From Planctomycetota bacterium (GTDB lineage Bacteria > Planctomycetota > PLA2 > JAEUHO01), in assembly GCA_965223505.1 (NCBI GenBank), contig CBDCWP010000044.1, positions 160,001 through 224,000 on the forward strand: 64,000 nt of DNA, read 5' to 3'. Positions 25,186-42,325 of the stretch are shown in pieces (the first letter of the stretch is position 1; each line of letters starts with the position of its first letter). The notes under the pieces were generated by a model. It was not told where the DNA came from, did not search any database, and saw only the letters and a list, made by a program, of their open reading frames with translations. A program made the translations under genes and the position numbers.

Positions 25186-25675
25186 GTGGCCAGCTTCATC
25201 GACTTTCGCTACTTGAAGAAGAAGGGATCGATGCCCGGTCCCAACAAGGTCAAGGTCCAGGCGCAGAAGGTGCATGATCCCAATGTGGGTGGTGTCCAGA
25301 ACATCGATGTGGCCCAGAGCGGCAACATCGTCGAAGTTCACTCGCCGGAGCAGACGAGCTGGGCCGACGGCGTGGTGTGGGTCAAGGGCGGCGGCACGAC
25401 CGTGTGGGGCAACTGTCCGAACTGGAACCGCCTCGTGGTGCGGGTCATGAGCGCCGCCGGACAGGACGTCGGCGCGTTCGTCATCAGTCGCGACATGGCG
25501 CACCCCAACGCGGAACGCGCGTCGCTGTGCATCCTCGACGGGGGGACGGAGGCCTACACGATCGCTTCGACCACTGGCACGCCGAGCGCAGGACGTCCGG
25601 CAGGCGCCGGTCGAAGCGGGCACGTTTGTGGATCCGCCCAACATGTCTTCGAAGTTCATCCAGAAGCAGCAATAG
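25186..25675 (+). CDS. Hypothetical protein (apparent frameshift near 25588; the track fuses it to the next gene)
   Basis: GGAGG RBS before GTG; coding-like codon use continues in another frame as QDVRQAPVEAGTFVDPPNMSSKFIQKQQ to TAG 25673-25675. Confidence 0.55.
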
Positions 25676-25701
25676 GGCCGCGCGGGCGGCGTGGGGAAAC
25701 A

Positions 25702-28699
25702 GTGAGAACGCGGCGAGGCTGCTCGGTCCTGCTCTTGCTTTGGATCGTGTCGACGCCGTGGGCCGCGCCGCTGCGTGCCGACGACGAGGCGGCGCCGGCG
25801 CTGAGCACCATGGCTGCGGAGGTGCTCGCGGCCGCGAAGAAGTCGGACACGGACGCGCTCGCCAAGCTCGTCGAGAACGGGGACTTCGATCCGTGGCAGA
25901 TCGCGCACGAGCTGCTCGTCCACCGGCAAGGCGACGCGGCGTGGGCTTATTGCAACGCGACGAAACGTCCCGATCTCGAGCCGCTCACGCGGTACGTCCG
26001 CACCCACCGCCGCAAGCTGCTGTCGGTCGCGACGTGGAAGCACGTGCTGCGTCTCTCCGAGCTGAGCGGCGAGGAAAAGTGGTTCGACATGCTCGCGTAC
26101 ATCGACGAGCAGCGCGTCGACGTCGCGTCCGAAACCGTCGGCGTCGCGCGCGTTCTCTACTACCGGGGTTGGGCGCAATACCACCTCGAGAAGCCCGCGG
26201 ACGCGTCCCGGACCTGGTGGCGCGCCGGCGAGATCGCCACCGCCCTCGGCTGGCACGCCGGCGAGTGCGAGTCGCTGCGGCTGACGTTCAACGCGGCGCA
26301 GGACGCGTTCGACTTCCAGCTCGTCGTTCGGAGCCAGAAGGCGCTTGCGGAGTTGTTTGCCCGTATCGGTGATCGCCACCAAGCCGCCGCCGAGATCATC
26401 GATCTCGGAAGTGTCTACGGACAGATGGGCGACTATCACAGCGCGCTCTCGAACTACGAGTCGGCGCTGCGCAGCTACCAAGACGTCTTGTCGCCCTCGG
26501 TGCGAGCCCAGACGCTCGACAACGCCGCGTTGGCGTGCCTGCGGTTGGGTGACTACGCGCAGGCGAGGGGGTACGCCACGGATGCGCTCGCCGCCGCGCC
26601 CGAGGCGTCGCAGATCCAGACCGGCTTTCCCACGATCACGCTGGCGTTGATCGACACCGAGATCGGCGCGTACGACGACGCCCGCGCGCATCTCGATGCC
26701 GCCAGATCGATGTTCGAGAGCATGCCCGTGCCGCAAACCAATCCGGAGGAGGCCGCTTACTACGAACGCCTGAAGACCAAGGCGCTCGCGCAGGTGCAGG
26801 CCAGCCTCGGCGAGGTCGATCTGCTCGAGGCGAAGTACGAGGCGGCGCTGGCCAACATGCAGAAGGCGCTCGCGATCTTCGAGGAGCTCGAGGAGGAGCG
26901 CTTCGTCGTTCGGGCGCGCGGCACGATCGCAGTCATCACGGGCCGCATGGGCGATCGGCGCAAGGCGCTTCGCGAGCTCCAGGCCCGTGCGCGAAACGCA
27001 AGAGCGCATTCGCGACCGCGAGGGGCTGTGCGGTACGCTCGGCGAGATCGCGGAGCTGCAGCGCGCCGCCCAGAAGCCGCAGCTCGCGCTCTCGACACGC
27101 ACGGAGCAGCTCGCCGTCGCCGTCGACATGGGCTCGCTCGGCTTCGAAGCGGAGGCGTTGGCCCAGCTCGCCAAGCTGTATGTCGACCGCGGCGACTACG
27201 CGAAGGCGCTCGACCACGCCGACCGCTCGATCCAGCAGCTGCGACTCGCGTTCGACTCGCTCCCGCCGCGCCAGGCGGCGCTGGCCCGGCATCGAACCGC
27301 CGACGCGTCCGCCGTCGGCCTGGCGGCGTCGCTCGGGCTCGCCGCTGAGGACCCCGCGGCCCTCGCGGCGGTCTGCCGCCATCTCGAGGCGGAACGCTCC
27401 GCCGTGCTGCTCACGCAGGTGGAAGGACGGCGCGCGATCGGTCGGGCGAAAGTGAGCCCCGAGCTGCTCGAGCGCCAGGACGAGGCGCGCGCGGCCGAGG
27501 CGATCGCGCGCGCGGAGCTCCAGGCGGCGCACGAGAACGGCAACCTGCAGAAGCAACGCGACGCCCGCGCGCGCATGGAAGCCGAGCAGTCGAAGCGCAT
27601 CAAGGCGATCGACAGCATCCATCTCGAGCGCGGTCTCGCGGCGGACCTGCTCTACCCCGAACCAGCCGCGATCGAAGCGATCCAAGGAGCCCTGCGACCC
27701 GACGAAGCCATGGTGCTGTACGGAACGAACGCAGGCGAGACGATCGCGCTCGTGTTGACCACGACGCGTCGCGAGCTTCGCGAGTTGGGGCCGTGGGATG
27801 CCGTCGCGGCAGCGTGCGCCAAGGCCGCCGAAGATCCGAAGCACCCCGAACAGACGCAGCGCTTCGAAGCGCTGGGCAAGCTCCTCGCGACGCCGCTGAA
27901 GCTCGACACGTCGATCCGGCGCGTGCTGGTGTCGCCCAAGGGTATGCTCTCGTATCAGCCCTTTTCGATGCTCTTCCAGGACCGCGAGGTCACACACGTC
28001 TCGTCCGGCACCATCTATGCGCATCTCAACAAGCGCACGCCCATCGAATCCGGCGACGTGCTGGCCTTCGGCGACCCCGACTACGCGAAGTCGGAGAAGG
28101 GCACCACCGTCGTGTCGGAATACCGCGGTCGAAGACTTCGTTCCTTGCCCGGTTCCGCCGAAGAGGCGCGGCGTGTCGGCACCGTCGTACGCCTGCGAGG
28201 CGAGGCCAACGAAACGCGCGTGCGCGCCGACATCGCGAAACACGCGCCGCTACGCGGGCTGCACTTCGCGGCACATGGGCTGGTCGACGAACACCGACTC
28301 AGCCGGTCCGCCGTGGCGCTGACCCCGACGGAGGGCGAGGACGGCCGGCTCTTCGCATACGAGCTCAACCTCATGGACGTGGCGGCGGATCTGGTGGTCG
28401 TTTCCGCGTGCGCATCGGGCCGCGCGGGATTCGCGCAGGCCGAGGGCATCGTCGGACTGACCATGGCGTTCTTCGTGGCCGGTGCCCGGCGCGTGATCGT
28501 CAGCTCGTGGTCCGTCGACGACGAGGCCACGCGCGAGCTGATGATCAAGTTCCACGAGCTTTGGAATCACGAGAACCCGGAAGAGCGGCTGAGCGCGGGC
28601 GCGGCGCTCAAGGCCGCGCAGGAACACGTCAAGGCGCAGCCGAAGTGGTCCCACCCGCAGTTCTGGGGCGCCTGGCAGCTGTGGGGGCCGGCCGACTGA
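25702..28699 (+). CDS. TPR-CHAT (caspase-like) protease with signal peptide (apparent +1 frameshift near 26985)
   Basis: Signal-peptide-like start; TPR helices; LAFGDPDY, LPGSAEEA, HFAAHG (His), VVSACASG (Cys), WSVDDEAT, HPQFWGAW. Confidence 0.88.
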
Positions 28700-28708
28700 C
28701 GCCGCGCT

Positions 28709-29074
28709 TCAACGCGGGCTCAACGGAAGAGCGCGCGAATCTCCGCGCTCGTCGCGACTCACCACGGCCTTGCCGTTGCGCAGGATGACCGGGCGCCGCA
28801 ACAAGTTCGGCTCCTTCAGCGCCGCCGCCTTGAAGGCGGACTTCGAAGGCGGCTTGTCCTTCCAGCCGTTCTCCTTCGCGACCCTGTGCCGGGTGTTCAT
28901 CACGTCCTCGACGCTCGCGCCCTTCAGGATCGCGTCGAGTTCGCGCCGCGTCAGCGACTCCTTGGCGTAGTTGCGTTCGACGACGTCGGGGTCGAGCTCG
29001 CGCACGAGACCGCGCGCGGGACGGCAATCGCTTCAGGTGCTCTTCCAGAAGAAGATCGTCTCGGGGTTCGGCAT
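28709..29074 (-). CDS. ArsC/Spx/YffB-family selenoprotein (Sec at TGA 29035-29033, U-S-D-C)
   Basis: ATG 29074 gives MPNPETIFFWKST-U-SDCRPAR in frame with track ORF 28709-29005; family signature EPNLLRRPVI; possible +1 error near 28748 affecting the last residues. Confidence 0.88.
28999..29018 (-). promoter_or_regulatory. Candidate SECIS element
   Basis: CGCGCGCG-GTCT-CGTGCGCG hairpin 14 nt after the TGA; the GGUCU apex resembles the E. coli fdhF SECIS loop. Confidence 0.7.
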
Positions 29075-29084
29075 GCGCGGGAGT

Positions 29085-30680
29085 CTACTCGCGGTCTTTC
29101 GTCGCGCGTACGCGAAGTTCCAGGGTCAGCGCGCGGCCGTCGGCGAGGTTCCCGGCGGAGAGCCGTCTCGGTTCGTCGAAACCGACGACGACGTCGGCCC
29201 GAACGGTCGGACGGGCGAGCACCGGCAGGTCGACCGCGCCGTCGGGCAGGATGCGCGTCGAGACGTCGGTCTGCTGCAGCTCGGACGTGAGCTCCACGAC
29301 GACCTGCTTGCCGCCCGGCGCGATGCGCGCCAGCGCCGTGGTGAGCCATCCGTCGAAGTAGACGCCCATCCAGGGCGCCGAGATGGTCATGCCTCAGGCA
29401 ACCTCCGCGTCGACGTCGCGCAGAAATCTCCGATCGATGCCGATGCGCGCCGACGCCGGCCGTCCGTCCAGTGCCGGCAGGCGAACCGAGGCGATGCGTT
29501 CACTGCCCGCGCGCAGCTCCAGCTCGATGACGACCGCCGTCGCCGTGCTGCGGCCCAGCTCGGCGATGAGGTCACGCACGGCGCGCTGATCCGCCAACGA
29601 TGCGCCGACGAAGAGCCTGCCGTTCGCATCGAGCGCGAACTTGGCGCGCGGCGCCCGGCTCACGAGCGTCTCGGCCACGAACGCGGGCGCTGCGAGGGGC
29701 GCCATGAATGCGACGCCCGGGCGCATCAGCTGGGGGTCGTGGTCTCCCTCCTCGGGTCGGGGAAGGGCGAACCACGAGTCCAGTGCGAAGAACGACAGGT
29801 CGTAGCAGCGCAGCGTCCCGCGTTTCCCGGTCGCAGGCTGCGGCCCCGTGCGGCGGGGCGTCAGGCGAACCGTGTACGTGTCGTCACCGAGCGCCACGCG
29901 GCTCTCGATGGTCTCGTTCGGCATCGCGCGGCCCGAGACGCATGCAAGCGCGCCGCGGTACGCGGTCCGGTCGAACGTTCCGAGTCGGTGGATGTGCGTC
30001 GTTTCCACGCGCGCCGGCGCGAATGCGCCCGTCTGACAGATCGCCTCGAGGGCGATCCGGCCGCCGGGTTCGATGTCATAGGCGCGCACGTCGACCGAGA
30101 CGCCGTCGAACACGCGCGCGACCACCGGATTTCCCATGGCCGACGGCATGTTGCCGTCGCCGGCGATCTCGACGCCGTAGTCCGCAACGACGTCGCGCCC
30201 GGTCACGCGCTGGAAGTTGCCGCGGCCGCCCGTTGCGACCTGGATCTGTCCAGTGGTGCGCGTGCCGTCGGCGCGAATCACCTCGACGTCGACCTCGATG
30301 CGCCGCGCGACGTCGACGGCCAGCCGGGCGAGCTCGGTGCGCCGATCGCTCGCCGCGGCGCCCGGGACGTAGAACACCTCGTCGCCGAGGGCGAGGATGC
30401 GCTCCGCGCCCAGCACTTCCTCCAGCCAGGGAAGGACCGAGTCGAACTCCGCGCGAATCTCGTCGGTTTCGTTCCACGCTCGGGTCTCCTCGATCGCCCC
30501 GAGCAGGTACAGATCGTCGTGTGCGATGAGACCGAGCACCGGCCCCTGCACCTGCTGCGGGTCGCGGCGGAAGCTCTCGATTCGTACGAGCGCGCGCGGT
30601 TCTACGCCCGCATCCTCTGCGAAGGCCATGGCGGAGAGCGCGAACGACGCCGCGAACGCAAGGAGAAGCATCGAGCGCAC
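29085..30680 (-). CDS. Exported secretin-like protein with in-frame TGA at 29396-29394 (candidate selenoprotein)
   Basis: Track ORFs 29394-30680 and 29085-29390 share a frame; DVDAEVA-*-GMTISAPWMGVYFDGW aligns without gaps to DWDVEVAQDARIGDPVTAVLFEGW of the upstream paralog. Confidence 0.7.
29361..29379 (-). promoter_or_regulatory. Candidate SECIS element
   Basis: GGCGCCC-TGGAT-GGGCGTC hairpin 14 nt after the TGA, the same spacing as in the neighbouring ArsC-like gene. Confidence 0.5.
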
Positions 30681-30683
30681 TGG

Positions 30684-32399
30684 CTAGTCTCCGATCGTGA
30701 CTTCGAGCTCGAGCCGCGTGGGGGGGCCGTCGCCGGCGACGGAGCCCACGTCGATCGACTTCGTGACGCCGAGCGTCAGCGTGAGCTCGCGCGCGATCTT
30801 CGCCCGCTTGATCTTCGGGAGCTCGATGGGGCCCGTCGCTTCGTTCTTCGGCCGCCGGACTTCGAACGGCGTGACGGCGTCCGTGAACTCGACATCGAAC
30901 GTGAGCATGACGTGCTTGCCGCCCGGCACCGCGTCGGCGCGCGCGTTCACGACCCAGCCCTCGAACAGGACGGCCGTGACGGGGTCGCCGATGCGCGCGT
31001 CCTGTGCGACCTCGACGTCCCAGTCCGCGACGTACGCGTGCTCGGTACCGCTCTGCGCGCAGCAGGAGCGTCCGAACGTCAGATCGAGCGCCGTTCGAGC
31101 GATCCGAACGCGCTCGCTCTCCGTTCGGCGCACCAACGCGACCTCGAGTCGCTTGCGCTGGAACAGCGATTCCTCGAGCGAACGCACCCAGGCGTTCGCC
31201 TTCCCCGCGGTGCCCGGCGTGCCGTCGGTCAGCAGCAGGGCCTCGACGACCTGGGCGTCCGCCTCGTTCCCGTCCCCGCGCAACTGCGCGACCAGCAGGT
31301 CTTCGACCTGGTCCGCGCGTGGAGCGTCCATCGGGGCCGTGCGCATCACGATGGGATGCGGGAACGGGACGCCGGTGTCGTGGTCCAACCGGATCGCGAA
31401 CGTCGAGGGAACGACGAGGAGCGCCCCGATGTCGATCGCGCGCAAGACCGCAGGTCCCGCGGCTGGTCGCACACCGCGCCGCGCCCGCAGGAGGACGATC
31501 GAGGTGCCGCCGTCGTCGTCGAACACCCAGGCCCGCGCCTCGTCCGCGCGCAGCCGCGTCGTCGTGGCGACGCGACGCACGTCCATGCGCGGTAGGTCGA
31601 CGGTGCCGACCGGCGGCGTCTCGAGCGGCAGGTCGCGCATGGGGGTGCTCAGGTCGCCTTGCTGAAACAGCGTCTCCATCGCGACGGCGCCGTCGTGCAG
31701 CACGAACGGACGAAGATCGAGGCTCCAGCCGTCGATCGCGACATCGACCATGGGATCGCCGATGACCGCCTCCTGGGCAATCTCGACGTTGAAGTCACCG
31801 ACATACGAGGTTCTGCGCGTCTGGCGGACGGCGGCGTGCACGTTCGGCCGGCATTCGGCCGACGCCGACGACACCCGGGCGCCGGCCCGGGTCGCCTCGA
31901 TCAGCAGCGTCGCCGCGCGCTCGGACGGGATGCCGCCCCGCCGGGCTTCGGATACCAGCTCGGCGACCTGCGCGCGCGCCTTCGCATCCAGATGCACCCA
32001 GTCGACGTCGACGCGAACCCGTGTCGAGGCCTCGTTCCAGCGCTGCAGGAGAAACGCGGCGATCTCCTCGTGCGCGCTCTCCGGCGCGGTGACGAACATG
32101 CGGTTGCCCGCCATCTCGATCGAGGCAAACTCGCTCGACGCCCAGAGCTCGGGTCGGATCTGAGCCTGGAGCCACTGCTCGAGCGCCTCCTCCGAGAGGT
32201 AGCGTGAGCCCTCCCGATCCCACTCGGTGATCGCCGGTGATACCAACGGGATCGGAAGCCCGATGTGGCCGGTCGGCGGTTCGGCCGCGGGTTCGATGAT
32301 CGCGCCGACCTCGTAGGTCTTCGTGACGAACGGTTCGTCCGCCGCGGCGCACGGGGCCAGTGCGGCGCCGAGCAGGAAGACGAGTGCGATGCGGGTCAT
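30684..32399 (-). CDS. Exported secretin-like protein with two DxxVE(I/V)AQ..IGDP repeats
   Basis: Signal peptide; N3-like GNRMFVTAPESAHEEIAAFL; duplicated beta-rich domain. Confidence 0.65.
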   Translation of the reverse strand: MTRIALVFLLGAALAPCAAADEPFVTKTYEVGAIIEPAAEPPTGHIGLPIPLVSPAITEWDREGSRYLSEEALEQWLQAQIRPELWASSEFASIEMAGNRMFVTAPESAHEEIAAFLLQRWNEASTRVRVDVDWVHLDAKARAQVAELVSEARRGGIPSERAATLLIEATRAGARVSSASAECRPNVHAAVRQTRRTSYVGDFNVEIAQEAVIGDPMVDVAIDGWSLDLRPFVLHDGAVAMETLFQQGDLSTPMRDLPLETPPVGTVDLPRMDVRRVATTTRLRADEARAWVFDDDGGTSIVLLRARRGVRPAAGPAVLRAIDIGALLVVPSTFAIRLDHDTGVPFPHPIVMRTAPMDAPRADQVEDLLVAQLRGDGNEADAQVVEALLLTDGTPGTAGKANAWVRSLEESLFQRKRLEVALVRRTESERVRIARTALDLTFGRSCCAQSGTEHAYVADWDVEVAQDARIGDPVTAVLFEGWVVNARADAVPGGKHVMLTFDVEFTDAVTPFEVRRPKNEATGPIELPKIKRAKIARELTLTLGVTKSIDVGSVAGDGPPTRLELEVTIGD

Positions 32400-40024: not shown

Positions 40025-42325
40025 ATGCCCCGTTCGTCCCTCCTGGTCTTTGCCGCCGTCCTGACCGTGGGATGGATGTGCGTCGAGCCTGCGCCGACGC
40101 CGGCTGACGCCTCGCCCACGGCGACCCAGCAGTTCCTCGCGAAATGGTGCATCGATTGCCACGGCAGCGAGGGGGCCGAAGCCGAGCTGTACCTCGAGGG
40201 GTTCGATCCCACCGCGCGCGACCTCGACACGCTCTCGACCCTGCGCAAGGTCCGCGAACGCATCGATGCGCGGCTGATGCCCCCCGCCGAGTTCCCGCAA
40301 CCCGACGCCGAAGAGCGGCGTTCCGTTCTCGCCGGTCTGGATCGACTGATCCTCGCCGGCGCCGAGGCGCTGCCCCCCGATCCGGGCCGCGTCACCGTGC
40401 GCCGCCTCAGCCGCGTCGAGTATGCGAACACGGTCCGCGACCTCTTGTCCGTGGACTTCGAGCCCTCCGACTCCTTTCCCGCGGACGACCTCGGGTACGG
40501 CTTCGACAACATCGGCGACGTGCTGTCGCTCTCGCCGCTCCTGCTCGAGAAATACGCGGCGGCCGCCGAGCAGATCGCGCTCGAAGCCGTCCACCTCGAA
40601 CCCGAGACGCCGCCCGTCCGGCGCTTCCAAGCGGAGACGATGGAGGTGTCGAACGAAGGCGCGGGGCGCGCGCAGGGGGACGTCTTCAACCTGTGGTCGA
40701 ACGGCGAGCTCTCCCAGCTGGTCACCGTGCCGCGCGACGGCGACTACGTCCTGCGCGCGTTCGTCTACGGCGAGCAGGCCGGGCCCGAGCCGGCGCGTAT
40801 GGACTTCGTCGTCGACGGGAAGACGGTCCGTACGCTCGACGTGCCCGAGACGTACGAGAAGCCGGCGACGCCCGCCGTCGAGCTACGCCTGACCCAGGGC
40901 CGCCACACGATCGGCGTGGCGTTCGTCAACGACTACTACCGGCCCGACGATCCCGATCCGGCGCAGCGCGACCGCAACATGCACTTCGACTGGGTCGAGC
41001 TCGAGGGACCGGTCGACGAGCTCCCCGTTCCCGCGTCGCATCGACGGCTCTTCGCGAACGACCCGGGCAAGGGCACGCCGGCGCGTCGCGCGAAGCCGAT
41101 TCTCGAGGATCTGTGCAGCCGCGCCTGGCGACGCCCCGTCACCGGCGCCGAGGTCAAGCGCCTGACCAGGCTGGTGGAAGGCGCGATCGAGGACGGGAGC
41201 AGCTTCGAAGCGGGCATTCAGCTGGCGCTGCGTGCCGCGCTCGTCTCGCCTCACTTCCTCTTTCGGCTCGAACCCGGGGCCGCGACGGGCAAGAAGGGCA
41301 CCACGCGCCCCCTGCGCGACTACGCGCTGGCGACGCGGCTCTCCTACTTCCTGTGGAGCAGCATGCCGGACGACGAGCTCTTCGCGCTCGCCAAGCGGCG
41401 CAAGCTGCGCGAGCCCCCGGTGCTGGCGGCGCAGGTCGAGCGGATGTTGGCGGACCCGAAGGCGTCGTCGCTCGCGACGAACTTCGCGGTGCAGTGGCTG
41501 GAGCTTCACAATCTCGACGACGCGCAGCCCGATCCGGAGCGCTTCCCCGGCTTCGACGAGGCGCTGCGCCGCGCGATGCGGCGCGAGAGCGAGCTGTTCA
41601 TCGACGCGATCGTGCGCGAGGAGCGCGATGTCCGCGAGATCGTGGACGCGGACTTCACGTTCATGAACGGACCGTTGGCGGCGCACTACGGCTACGACAA
41701 GATCCAGGGCCCCGCGTTCCGGCGCGTGGAGCTCGAGGGCAAGCGCCGGGGCGGCGTGCTGTCGCACGCCGGCGTTCTGACGGTCACGTCGAACCCGACG
41801 CGCACGTCTCCGGTCAAGCGCGGCAAGTGGGTGCTCGAGAATCTGCTGGACGCGGGAACGCCGCCGCCGCCGCCGGGCGCCGACTCCCTCGACGAAGAGC
41901 AGGTCACGCAGAGCGCACGCTCGTTGCGCGAGCAGCTCGAGCGGCACCGGGCCAAGCCGGAGTGCGCGGTTTGCCACGACCGGATGGACGCTCTCGGATT
42001 CGCGCTCGAGAACTACGACGCGGTCGGCAAGTGGCGACACATCGACGGCGGCAAGCTGATCGACGCCTCCGGCGTGCTGCCGGGGGGGCGCGAGCTGAAC
42101 GGCGCGGCGGATCTCAAGGCGGTGCTGCGCAAGGACCGCGCGTTCTTGCGGTGCCTCACGAAGAAGCTCTTCACGTTCGCGGTCGGCCGCAACCCGACGC
42201 CCGCGGACGAGCTGGCGATCTACGCCTTGGCCGCGTCGCTGCCGCACGAACGGGTTACGATGAGGCAGATCATCCTGCGCATCGTGGAGCTCCCCGCGTT
42301 CCGCCTGCGCAAGGTGCGGGAGTAG
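40025..42325 (+). CDS. DUF1592/1588/1587/1595/1585 protein with cytochrome c motifs
   Basis: CIDCH, RRLSRVEYANTVRDL, LATRLSYFLWSSMPD, TSPVKRGKWV, CAVCH..MD.LGF. Confidence 0.93.
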   Translation: MPRSSLLVFAAVLTVGWMCVEPAPTPADASPTATQQFLAKWCIDCHGSEGAEAELYLEGFDPTARDLDTLSTLRKVRERIDARLMPPAEFPQPDAEERRSVLAGLDRLILAGAEALPPDPGRVTVRRLSRVEYANTVRDLLSVDFEPSDSFPADDLGYGFDNIGDVLSLSPLLLEKYAAAAEQIALEAVHLEPETPPVRRFQAETMEVSNEGAGRAQGDVFNLWSNGELSQLVTVPRDGDYVLRAFVYGEQAGPEPARMDFVVDGKTVRTLDVPETYEKPATPAVELRLTQGRHTIGVAFVNDYYRPDDPDPAQRDRNMHFDWVELEGPVDELPVPASHRRLFANDPGKGTPARRAKPILEDLCSRAWRRPVTGAEVKRLTRLVEGAIEDGSSFEAGIQLALRAALVSPHFLFRLEPGAATGKKGTTRPLRDYALATRLSYFLWSSMPDDELFALAKRRKLREPPVLAAQVERMLADPKASSLATNFAVQWLELHNLDDAQPDPERFPGFDEALRRAMRRESELFIDAIVREERDVREIVDADFTFMNGPLAAHYGYDKIQGPAFRRVELEGKRRGGVLSHAGVLTVTSNPTRTSPVKRGKWVLENLLDAGTPPPPPGADSLDEEQVTQSARSLREQLERHRAKPECAVCHDRMDALGFALENYDAVGKWRHIDGGKLIDASGVLPGGRELNGAADLKAVLRKDRAFLRCLTKKLFTFAVGRNPTPADELAIYALAASLPHERVTMRQIILRIVELPAFRLRKVRE

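Follow-up and report, generated by a model that had tools for sequence, protein, structure and literature searches.

A candidate selenoprotein family of secretin-like proteins in Planctomycetota, with an in-frame UGA codon at the conserved tip of a predicted hairpin

We analysed a 64,000-nucleotide (nt) stretch of DNA from a Planctomycetota bacterium (contig CBDCWP010000044.1, positions 160,001 to 224,000; the whole stretch is called the window here) and found on its minus strand, at 29085-30680, what is very probably a single gene whose UGA at codon 429 is decoded as selenocysteine (Sec) by SelB with a downstream hairpin. The Sec decoding of the UGA, taken by itself, is held with high confidence. 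Judged from sequence comparisons, this is a new selenoprotein family that is decoded in the usual way. The elements concerned are these:

29085..30680, minus strand: exported secretin-like selenoprotein gene (proposed), 531 amino acids (aa) when read through, GTG start at 30678-30680 and TAG stop at 29085-29087
29394..29396, minus strand: in-frame TGA at residue 429, read here as selenocysteine; the same column is TGA in 7/7 orthologous DNAs
29361..29379, minus strand: hairpin resembling a selenocysteine insertion sequence (SECIS), GGCGCCC-UGGAU-GGGCGUC, 7 bp, beginning 14 nt past the TGA, with 21 nt from the TGA to the loop

Two open reading frames (ORFs) make up this locus. The upstream one, at 29394..30680 on the minus strand, starts with GTG and encodes 428 aa, whose C-terminal end, ...RFLRDVDAEVA, is followed by the TGA; the other, at 29085..29390 on the same strand, lies in the same frame, begins after GGC and encodes 101 aa. 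An initial annotation of this DNA had joined the two across TGA-GGC and numbered the TGA as residue 429 of 531, and both the frame and the translation bore this out. It had also noted a GGAGG 11 nt before the ATG at 29390, which does lie there; we found that this GGAGG is part of conserved Glu-Val codons and is present in the orthologs too. The TGA itself was recovered in public sequence data, where one contig from the likely source sample (corresponding to window 29347-29662) spans it with zero differences from the window sequence. The depth of the public contigs over the window was low, at about 4, and only this one covered the TGA.

The read-through protein was searched against 61 related genomes. 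The five best orthologs (G009, G020, G011, G008 and G013) came from four other genera of the same taxonomic family, and each contained exactly one in-frame stop, a TGA, at the column of the window's TGA. When the window protein and these five genome orthologs were aligned (alignment A1), identity to the window protein was 28-32%. The residues around the stop read as follows:

Window: D-V-D-A-E-V-A-*-G-M-T-I-S-A-P-W-M-G
G009: D-S-D-P-E-V-G-*-S-I-H-I-A-D-P-R-V-G
G020: D-A-D-T-E-V-G-*-S-I-A-I-A-D-P-Q-V-G
G011: D-S-D-V-E-V-G-*-S-I-S-I-S-D-P-R-S-G
G008: D-A-D-V-E-V-G-*-S-V-A-I-A-D-P-R-V-G
G013: D-H-D-T-E-V-G-*-S-V-S-I-A-D-P-R-V-G

A scan of public contigs with the repeat-1 motif of the protein returned seven genome loci together with a metagenome contig, L090. 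Six of the seven genome loci were loci already found, and the seventh, L089, was taken as G013; L090 has TGA at the Sec column and is the seventh TGA gene. Tabulating the aligned codon, a check suggested by the initial annotation, therefore gave TGA at one alignment column in 7/7 orthologous DNAs (six genomes of five genera and one metagenome contig). With a profile of the six proteins, the TGA ortholog was found in 6/29 genomes of the taxonomic family, each at more than 600 bits, and an order-wide profile search gave the same six TGA genomes, among 40. A TGA shared by seven genes in a family whose A1 members are only 28-32% identical to the window protein strongly supports the Sec reading, as far as sequence comparison can speak to it. 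Weaker matches to the family profile at G026:C199:3721-4221 and G009:C5:489541-489948 contain one TGA each.

We found several signs of translation beyond the TGA. The orthologs align with the window protein over its full length, and the columns invariant in A1 continue past the TGA (I433, P436, G439, F442, G444 and L464) as they also occur before residue 429. The G+C content at third codon positions was 0.87 upstream of the TGA and 0.90 downstream. Between G011 and L090, which are the closest pair, the ratio of nonsynonymous to synonymous substitution rates (dN/dS) was similar on the two sides, about 0.43 upstream of the TGA and about 0.48 in the 68 codons that follow it. By these signatures we say that the region 3′ of the TGA is translated. 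The sequence that directly follows the TGA in the five genome orthologs is S-I/V-x-I-[AS]-D-P, which contains no Met, and none of the five (0/5) was split with a new start after the stop. The split-gene reading was rejected because these five orthologs have no Met right after the TGA.

The next question was what occupies the TGA column in genes that have no stop. Sampling 401 genomes of the phylum brought up two more distant orthologs that contain no stop, G335 (328 bits) and G293 (297 bits). Their context at the column is H-D-V-E-V-G-C-Y and Y-D-V-E-V-G-C-F, respectively, and the Cys codon is TGC in both. When 1.84 billion cluster representatives were searched exhaustively with a profile, 719 matched at E ≤ 0.001, 203 at E ≤ 1e-10 and 32 at E ≤ 1e-30, and the state of the column was read in the best 150 of the 719. 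Among these 150, 14 end exactly at ...EV[GA] and seven start just past the TGA column, each count including an ORF of the window itself; 12 have Cys at the column, in the form EVGC[YFW]..I.DP; the remainder are mostly about 570-600 aa long, with D.DVE[IV]AQ...I.DP present twice. Beyond the seven orthologous DNAs, eight further representatives stop at the TGA column. Cys homologs, which the initial annotation had named as a test of the Sec reading, thus exist both among the representatives and as DNA. A relative of the Gln type lies directly upstream in the window:

30684..32399, minus strand: Gln-type paralog of 571 aa (MTRIALVF..., P0034), with two repeats, each containing D.[DN]VE[IV]AQ...IGDP

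The Gln that the initial annotation had placed at the aligned column of this paralog was seen in both repeats, with CAG as the codon read for one of them. Read across representatives and orthologs, the column thus holds Gln in the family at large and Cys in one subfamily, and a single clade within that subfamily has TGA. The tip motif around it, D.DVE[IV]A[QCU]...I.DP, is the best-conserved part of the whole family.

To place the TGA genes, a quick maximum-likelihood tree was built from 30 rows: seven TGA genes, five truncated representatives, six Cys forms, two other Cys-bearing paralogs and ten Gln-type paralogs. The TGA genes and the five truncated representatives formed one clade with a Shimodaira–Hasegawa-like approximate likelihood-ratio (SH-aLRT) value of 97, nested among the Cys forms when the tree was rooted on the Gln-type paralogs. 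This fits a single Cys-to-Sec change inside the Cys-bearing subfamily, a direction that depends on the outgroup rooting of a quick tree. Distant members with Cys at the hairpin-tip column were also seen, namely P0142 (EVGC and ELAC, in both repeats), P0146, P0132 and L079/G378 (EVAC), and the change from Gln to Cys at this column may have happened more than once.

We then looked for the Sec machinery in the window's genome, an assembly of 5.15 Mb in 44 contigs that is 92% complete. A tRNA-Sec was found (69 bits with Rfam; reported by ARAGORN as SeC with anticodon tca), as were selB (336 bits), selA (507 bits) and selD (338 bits), and each of the four exceeded its curated cut-off. The selA, selB and selC genes whose absence would have spoken against the initial annotation are accordingly all present, and selD with them. 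The selD gene has an in-frame TGA of its own, with a hairpin beginning 14 nt downstream. Judged from this gene set, the answer to whether the organism uses selenocysteine is yes. Among the other genomes with the TGA gene, selB was above its cut-off in 5/5, making 6/6 with the window's genome. The selA gene adjoins selD at G000:C8:36851-39232, outside the window.

The 7-bp hairpin with a G-containing loop that the initial annotation had described 14 nt past the TGA was confirmed at 29361-29379, and its further statement that the selenoprotein-like gene downstream, with a UxxC motif (U, selenocysteine), has equal spacing also held, as both hairpins begin 14 nt after their own TGA; in the same genome this spacing is shared by that ArsC-like UxxC gene and by selD. 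The hairpins of the other TGA genes, given as 5′ arm, loop and 3′ arm, were as follows:

G009: GGACCCC / CGGGUC / GGGGUCC
G020: ACCCCC / AGGU / GGGGGU
G011 and L090: GAUCCCC / GGUC / GGGGGUC
G008: GGAUCCC / CGGGUC / GGGAUCC
G013: GGACCCC / CGGGU / GGGG(C)UCC, with one bulged C

A perfect stem of at least 6 bp beginning 14-16 nt past the TGA was present in 6/7 TGA genes, and the seventh, G013, has the same stem with a one-base bulge. Folded alone, the window hairpin gave -12.8 kcal/mol, within a range of -10.3 to -13.5 kcal/mol for all seven. The legend of Fig. 2 of a recent review (PMC13188914) describes the bacterial SECIS (bSECIS) by a loop of 3-9 nt, a stem of 4-16 bp, a G in the first two loop positions, a distance of 16-37 nt from UGA to loop and a minimum free energy of at most -7.5 kcal/mol. 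All seven TGA genes (7/7) fall within this description, with stems of 6-7 bp, loops of 4-6 nt, a G at loop position 1 or 2 and a spacing of 21-22 nt. As a control, 67 homologous non-TGA sites were examined for perfect stems of 6 bp or longer that begin 10-18 nt past the codon. Such a stem was found at 10/67 sites (9/50 Gln, 1/10 Glu, 0/3 Cys, 0/2 Lys and 0/2 Gly), and 0/10 of these control stems had GG in the loop; the loops of the TGA genes are UGGAU, CGGGUC, AGGU, GGUC and CGGGU. The two Cys orthologs, G335 and G293, have no comparable hairpin at the homologous place, and neither do the Gln-type sites. The Pro codon in the stem is CCC in 7/7 TGA genes, compared with 31/67 non-TGA sites. At an unchanged distance from the TGA, the window sequence still forms a 7-bp stem despite three residue changes (D to A, R to W and V to M).

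To gain insight into what kind of protein carries the UGA, we compared it with domain databases and with known structures. Neither the selenoprotein nor its upstream paralog gave a match in Pfam at E ≤ 1 or in NCBIfam, whose release 20 has models for many catalogued selenoprotein families. Of 44 family members, one was above the cut-off of the Pfam Secretin family (P0103, 30.2 bits against 27.5), two were sub-threshold and 41 gave none. A profile of 115 family members matched the BfpB secretin (Protein Data Bank (PDB) chain 9u5s_A) with E 5.3e-14, profile positions 370-541 aligning with chain residues 254-482; matches to GspD, InvG and PilQ were weak. An AlphaFold2 model built on the 115-row family alignment had a mean predicted local distance difference test (pLDDT) of 87.8 and a predicted template-modelling score (pTM) of 0.88. 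The model shows a signal-peptide-like N-terminal helix and a poorly predicted stretch, followed by two similar units, each with a small alpha/beta domain and then a beta domain that opens with a very long hairpin:

30618..30680, minus strand: probable signal peptide, residues 1-21 (MRSMLLLAFAASFALSAMAFA before ED), read by eye; model helix at residues 2-23
30072..30224, minus strand: long beta-hairpin of repeat 1, residues 153-203, with strands 153-173 and 180-203 and tip 174-179 (model)
29322..29459, minus strand: long beta-hairpin of repeat 2, residues 408-453, with strands 408-428 and 431-453 and Sec429 at the turn (model)

A hydrophobic N-terminus was present in all six proteins of A1. In a Foldseek search with the model, 14 of the 16 matches at E ≤ 0.001 were secretins, mostly with probability 1.00. 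In the VIA comparison the first 28 rows were all secretins, the best being InvG (5tcr_A; Z 10.3, root-mean-square deviation 5.4 Å over 210 aligned residues, model residues 282-531), and unrelated barrels came next with Z ≤ 6.9. The initial annotation's description of an exported, beta-rich, secretin-like protein is thus supported by the BfpB profile match and the fold matches. By profile and predicted fold the family is secretin-like, that is, homologous to secretins, and it is not a member of them by the Pfam criterion. For a Cys-type homolog (P0010, residues 100-520), prediction of a two-copy complex gave 'no answer' at a score of 0.00, which carries weight neither way.

The position of the Sec was then compared with that of the secretin gate. 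In the HMMER alignment to BfpB, the Gln/Cys/Sec column pairs, by hand count, with chain residue 401 of 9u5s_A. The 9u5s numbering is that of the mature protein from Cys1 (as given in PMC12531336), and in the precursor numbering of PMC12114550 the lipidated Cys is at 18, gate 1 spans 406-430 and its loop 411-426. Chain residue 401 therefore corresponds to BfpB precursor residue 418, in the middle of gate 1. On this distant alignment and hand count, in place of a coordinate superposition, Sec429 probably lies at the gate-tip position, in agreement with the hairpin turn of the model. The equivalent tip in repeat 1 reads EIAG-DGNMP in the window and E-[LV]-A-C-D-N-S-G-G in the other orthologs, with their Cys aligned to Gly174. 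By this alignment the two equivalent tips carry Cys and Sec, respectively, in most orthologs, and the window protein has the Sec only. The initial annotation had placed the UGA outside any CxxC motif; this stands for the window gene and needs the qualifier that the other orthologs have a conserved Cys at the equivalent tip of repeat 1.

Several of our observations weigh against the reading of the locus as a secretin-like selenoprotein gene. The covariation of the hairpin, suggested as a check by the initial annotation, found no statistical support: neither a covariance model nor pair counts over the seven TGA sites gave a significant result. In a fixed register 83.7% of cells pair, a value equalled by 366/500 shuffles; just one pair is altered on both sides (in G008, from C-G to U-A); and since most of the stem consists of a run of C facing a run of G, the 3′ arm pairs equally well when slid by -1. 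The register of the window hairpin is itself shifted by one, and the fixed-column count therefore scores it as mismatches. The conserved D-P...G residues encode part of the stem. The fold energy of the 40 nt after the codon was not distinctive in this GC-rich family, at -14.7 ± 0.7 kcal/mol for TGA and -12.1 ± 3.3 kcal/mol for Gln. The window protein is the most divergent member of the tree, with an end branch of 1.59, and the Cys kept in repeat 1 of the other orthologs is missing from it. The Sec stands outside any CxxU or UxxC motif: its context is EVA-U-GMT here and EVG-U-S[IV] in the orthologs, and the three residues on either side include no Cys. As for the fold, Pfam and NCBIfam give no match, and the secretin assignment is therefore based on a profile match and a predicted fold of low template-modelling (TM) score; over the query, the TM-scores of the Foldseek matches at E ≤ 0.001 were 0.15-0.31.

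The weak covariation is also what favours the idea that the UGA is read through without selenium, either by a near-cognate Trp, Cys or Arg tRNA or as a regulated terminator with hairpin-driven read-through or pausing. Against it, the hairpin fits the bSECIS loop and spacing and resembles those of two other selenoprotein genes of the same genome, Cys occupies the column in homologs, which is the standard signature of Sec, and selB is present in all six genomes with the TGA gene; selenium-free read-through thus appears very unlikely. A pseudogene or a true split gene, with a 428-aa product and a 101-aa ORF that is either dead or separately started at ATG 29390, could appeal to the ATG and GGAGG that do exist in the window and to the gene callers, which give both pieces (P0004 and P0038). 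It would have to accommodate the five orthologs without a Met past the TGA, a GGAGG that consists of Glu-Val codons common to the orthologs, a TGA column kept at such low identity with conserved residues and a coding signature downstream, and a break that would hit the turn of the predicted beta-hairpin, and we consider it highly improbable. A mistake of sequencing or assembly in this genome as the origin of the TGA has in its favour the low depth of the public contigs; the chance of it is close to negligible, as the same column is TGA in six other independent assemblies and the public contig at window 29347-29662 agrees with the window. Sec decoding of a single gene remains the reading that we prefer.

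We also wanted to know which genes accompany the selenoprotein gene. In the window, 3 nt separate the stop of the Gln-type paralog from the start codon of the selenoprotein gene, and in 9/9 loci examined as DNA the Sec or Cys gene was directly preceded by such a paralog. This gene order, common to all nine loci, suggests that the Gln-type paralog and the Sec/Cys protein form a two-protein unit. In the flanks compared, the paralog was the sole conserved neighbour. Genes for a type II secretion system (T2SS), a type III secretion system (T3SS), type IV pili or phage export were not found by Pfam in window 17-42 kb or in ortholog flanks of up to about 3 kb on each side. On the other side of the selenoprotein gene the window has the following gene:

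28709..29074, minus strand: ArsC-family gene with TGA at codon 14 (UxxC), Pfam ArsC E 2.2e-9, ATG at 29074

It begins 10 nt past the TAG of the selenoprotein gene, as the initial annotation had stated of its UxxC gene, and this start and the TGA at codon 14 were both confirmed. Matches to it were found in 16/61 related genomes, all 16 with one TGA inside the match. By tblastn, the ArsC-like gene is not beside the secretin-like gene in the orthologs' genomes, and the two are adjacent in the window's genome only. The ORF track truncates the ArsC-like gene, which is a known kind of selenoprotein. Convergent to the selenoprotein operon, a CHAT-domain protein with TPR repeats is encoded at window 26987-28699 on the plus strand, and a second TPR-matching ORF at 25186-27348 on the same strand overlaps it by about 360 nt. 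Farther away, at window 40025-42325 on the plus strand, lies a multi-domain protein with PSD2-5, PSCyt1/3 and CBM60, which is typical of Planctomycetota and fits the phylum.

In the mechanism that we propose, SelB and Sec-tRNA(Sec) would decode UGA 429 as selenocysteine, directed by the hairpin 14 nt downstream. The product would be an exported 531-aa protein of a divergent tandem-repeat secretin-like family of Planctomycetota, with its Sec where the long hairpin of repeat 2 turns, aligned with the gate 1 tip of secretins. It may form a multimeric gated outer-membrane assembly, possibly with the Gln-type upstream paralog. The Sec, near a conserved Glu, would then stand where the tips shut the gate, and could serve as a redox-sensitive or ligand-binding gate element if its selenol formed selenenylsulfide or diselenide links or bound a soft ligand. 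Such redox or ligand gating is speculative and we rate it as quite unlikely, also in its most specific form: a ring built with the paralog, in which the repeat-1 tips (Cys in most orthologs) and the repeat-2 Sec tips meet at the centre of the gate, and in which S-Se or diselenide bonds, or a bound soft metal or metalloid, could lock or open the channel. The Sec could also be real in a protein that is not a channel, such as a soluble or surface scaffold with a catalytic or cross-linking Sec/Cys at the tip. The tip motif is the best-conserved feature of the family, which points to a site more than to a plug; the neighbouring stretches that were scanned showed no secretion-system genes; and the tandem-repeat build is unlike that of known secretins. 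However, the sequence and fold matches are specific to ring-forming secretins and include an N3-like domain before the beta domain, and a non-channel protein seems unlikely on balance. Gating of secretins by redox state or by a ligand was not found described in the parts of the literature consulted.

If the Sec reading of the gene is true, these data add a selenoprotein family whose genes are broken into two pieces by gene callers, and the fragments need merging both in the window and in the orthologs. The Sec would lie outside the usual redox motifs, at the best-conserved point of a secretin-like hairpin, and would mark the residue that is probably the most important one in an uncharacterised Planctomycetota family with 719 representatives at E ≤ 0.001. 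Gln, Cys and Sec at one structural position would also provide a natural substitution series on a gate-like tip, and if the gating reading is true as well, it would represent a mode of secretin gating that we have not found described. The source names of the homologs examined were all 'hypothetical protein'. Among the papers listed on secretins, selenocysteine, Planctomycetota and SECIS elements, no clear description of a secretin-type selenoprotein was found. The main text of the 2026 review of prokaryotic selenoprotein families (PMC13188914) contains neither 'secretin' nor 'Planctomyc', no secretin-type entry was found in its text and tables, and the absence of both words also holds for the main text of the deep-Sep and BSepDB papers (PMC12013277 and PMC13326102), with the BSepDB family table lying outside this check. 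The initial annotation had spoken of a new selenoprotein class: the family was indeed not found as a selenoprotein in the literature checked, and 'new family, usual decoding' describes it better than 'class'.

E. coli fdhF is the prototype of selenoprotein genes that use SelB and an in-frame bSECIS. The window gene resembles such genes, as they are set out in the main text and Fig. 2 legend of PMC13188914, in its UGA with a close hairpin, its Cys homologs and the presence of selA, selB, selC and selD; it differs in that its family was not found among the selenoproteins listed there and in that its Sec lies outside a motif of the CxxU/UxxC type. Thiol-oxidoreductase selenoproteins combine such a motif with a thioredoxin-like fold, whereas the window protein has no such motif and a secretin-like fold. 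Precedents for Sec in predicted outer-membrane barrels, as opposed to cytoplasmic redox enzymes, are given in the table of the same review, namely a TonB-dependent receptor with an FCYXU motif and the GSU2204 family (MtrB/PioB-type), although their folds and families are other than those of this secretin-like protein. The neighbouring ArsC-like gene is like the ArsC-family UxxC selenoproteins (Global Ocean Sampling (GOS) 'Arsenate reductase 2', PMC2398784; NF041106) in its ArsC family, UxxC and hairpin; it differs from NF041106 in scoring 16.3 bits against a cut-off of 85, and it is unlinked to the secretin-like gene elsewhere.

The closest structural comparison is with the secretins themselves (PF00263; GspD, PilQ, InvG, pIV and BfpB). 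Besides the BfpB profile match (E 5.3e-14), superposition of model residues 282-531 on N3 plus secretin domains gives Z 9-10 for InvG, GspD, pIV and PilQ, the place of gate 1 is taken by a long conserved hairpin, and the N-terminus is signal-peptide-like. Unlike in secretins, a single chain contains two tandem copies of the unit, each with a shorter beta domain (about 150 aa), all but 1/44 members fail the Pfam Secretin model, and no T2SS, T3SS or type IV pilus genes were seen in the flanks scanned. The tip motif sets the family apart as well, being highly conserved and centred on Gln, Cys or Sec.

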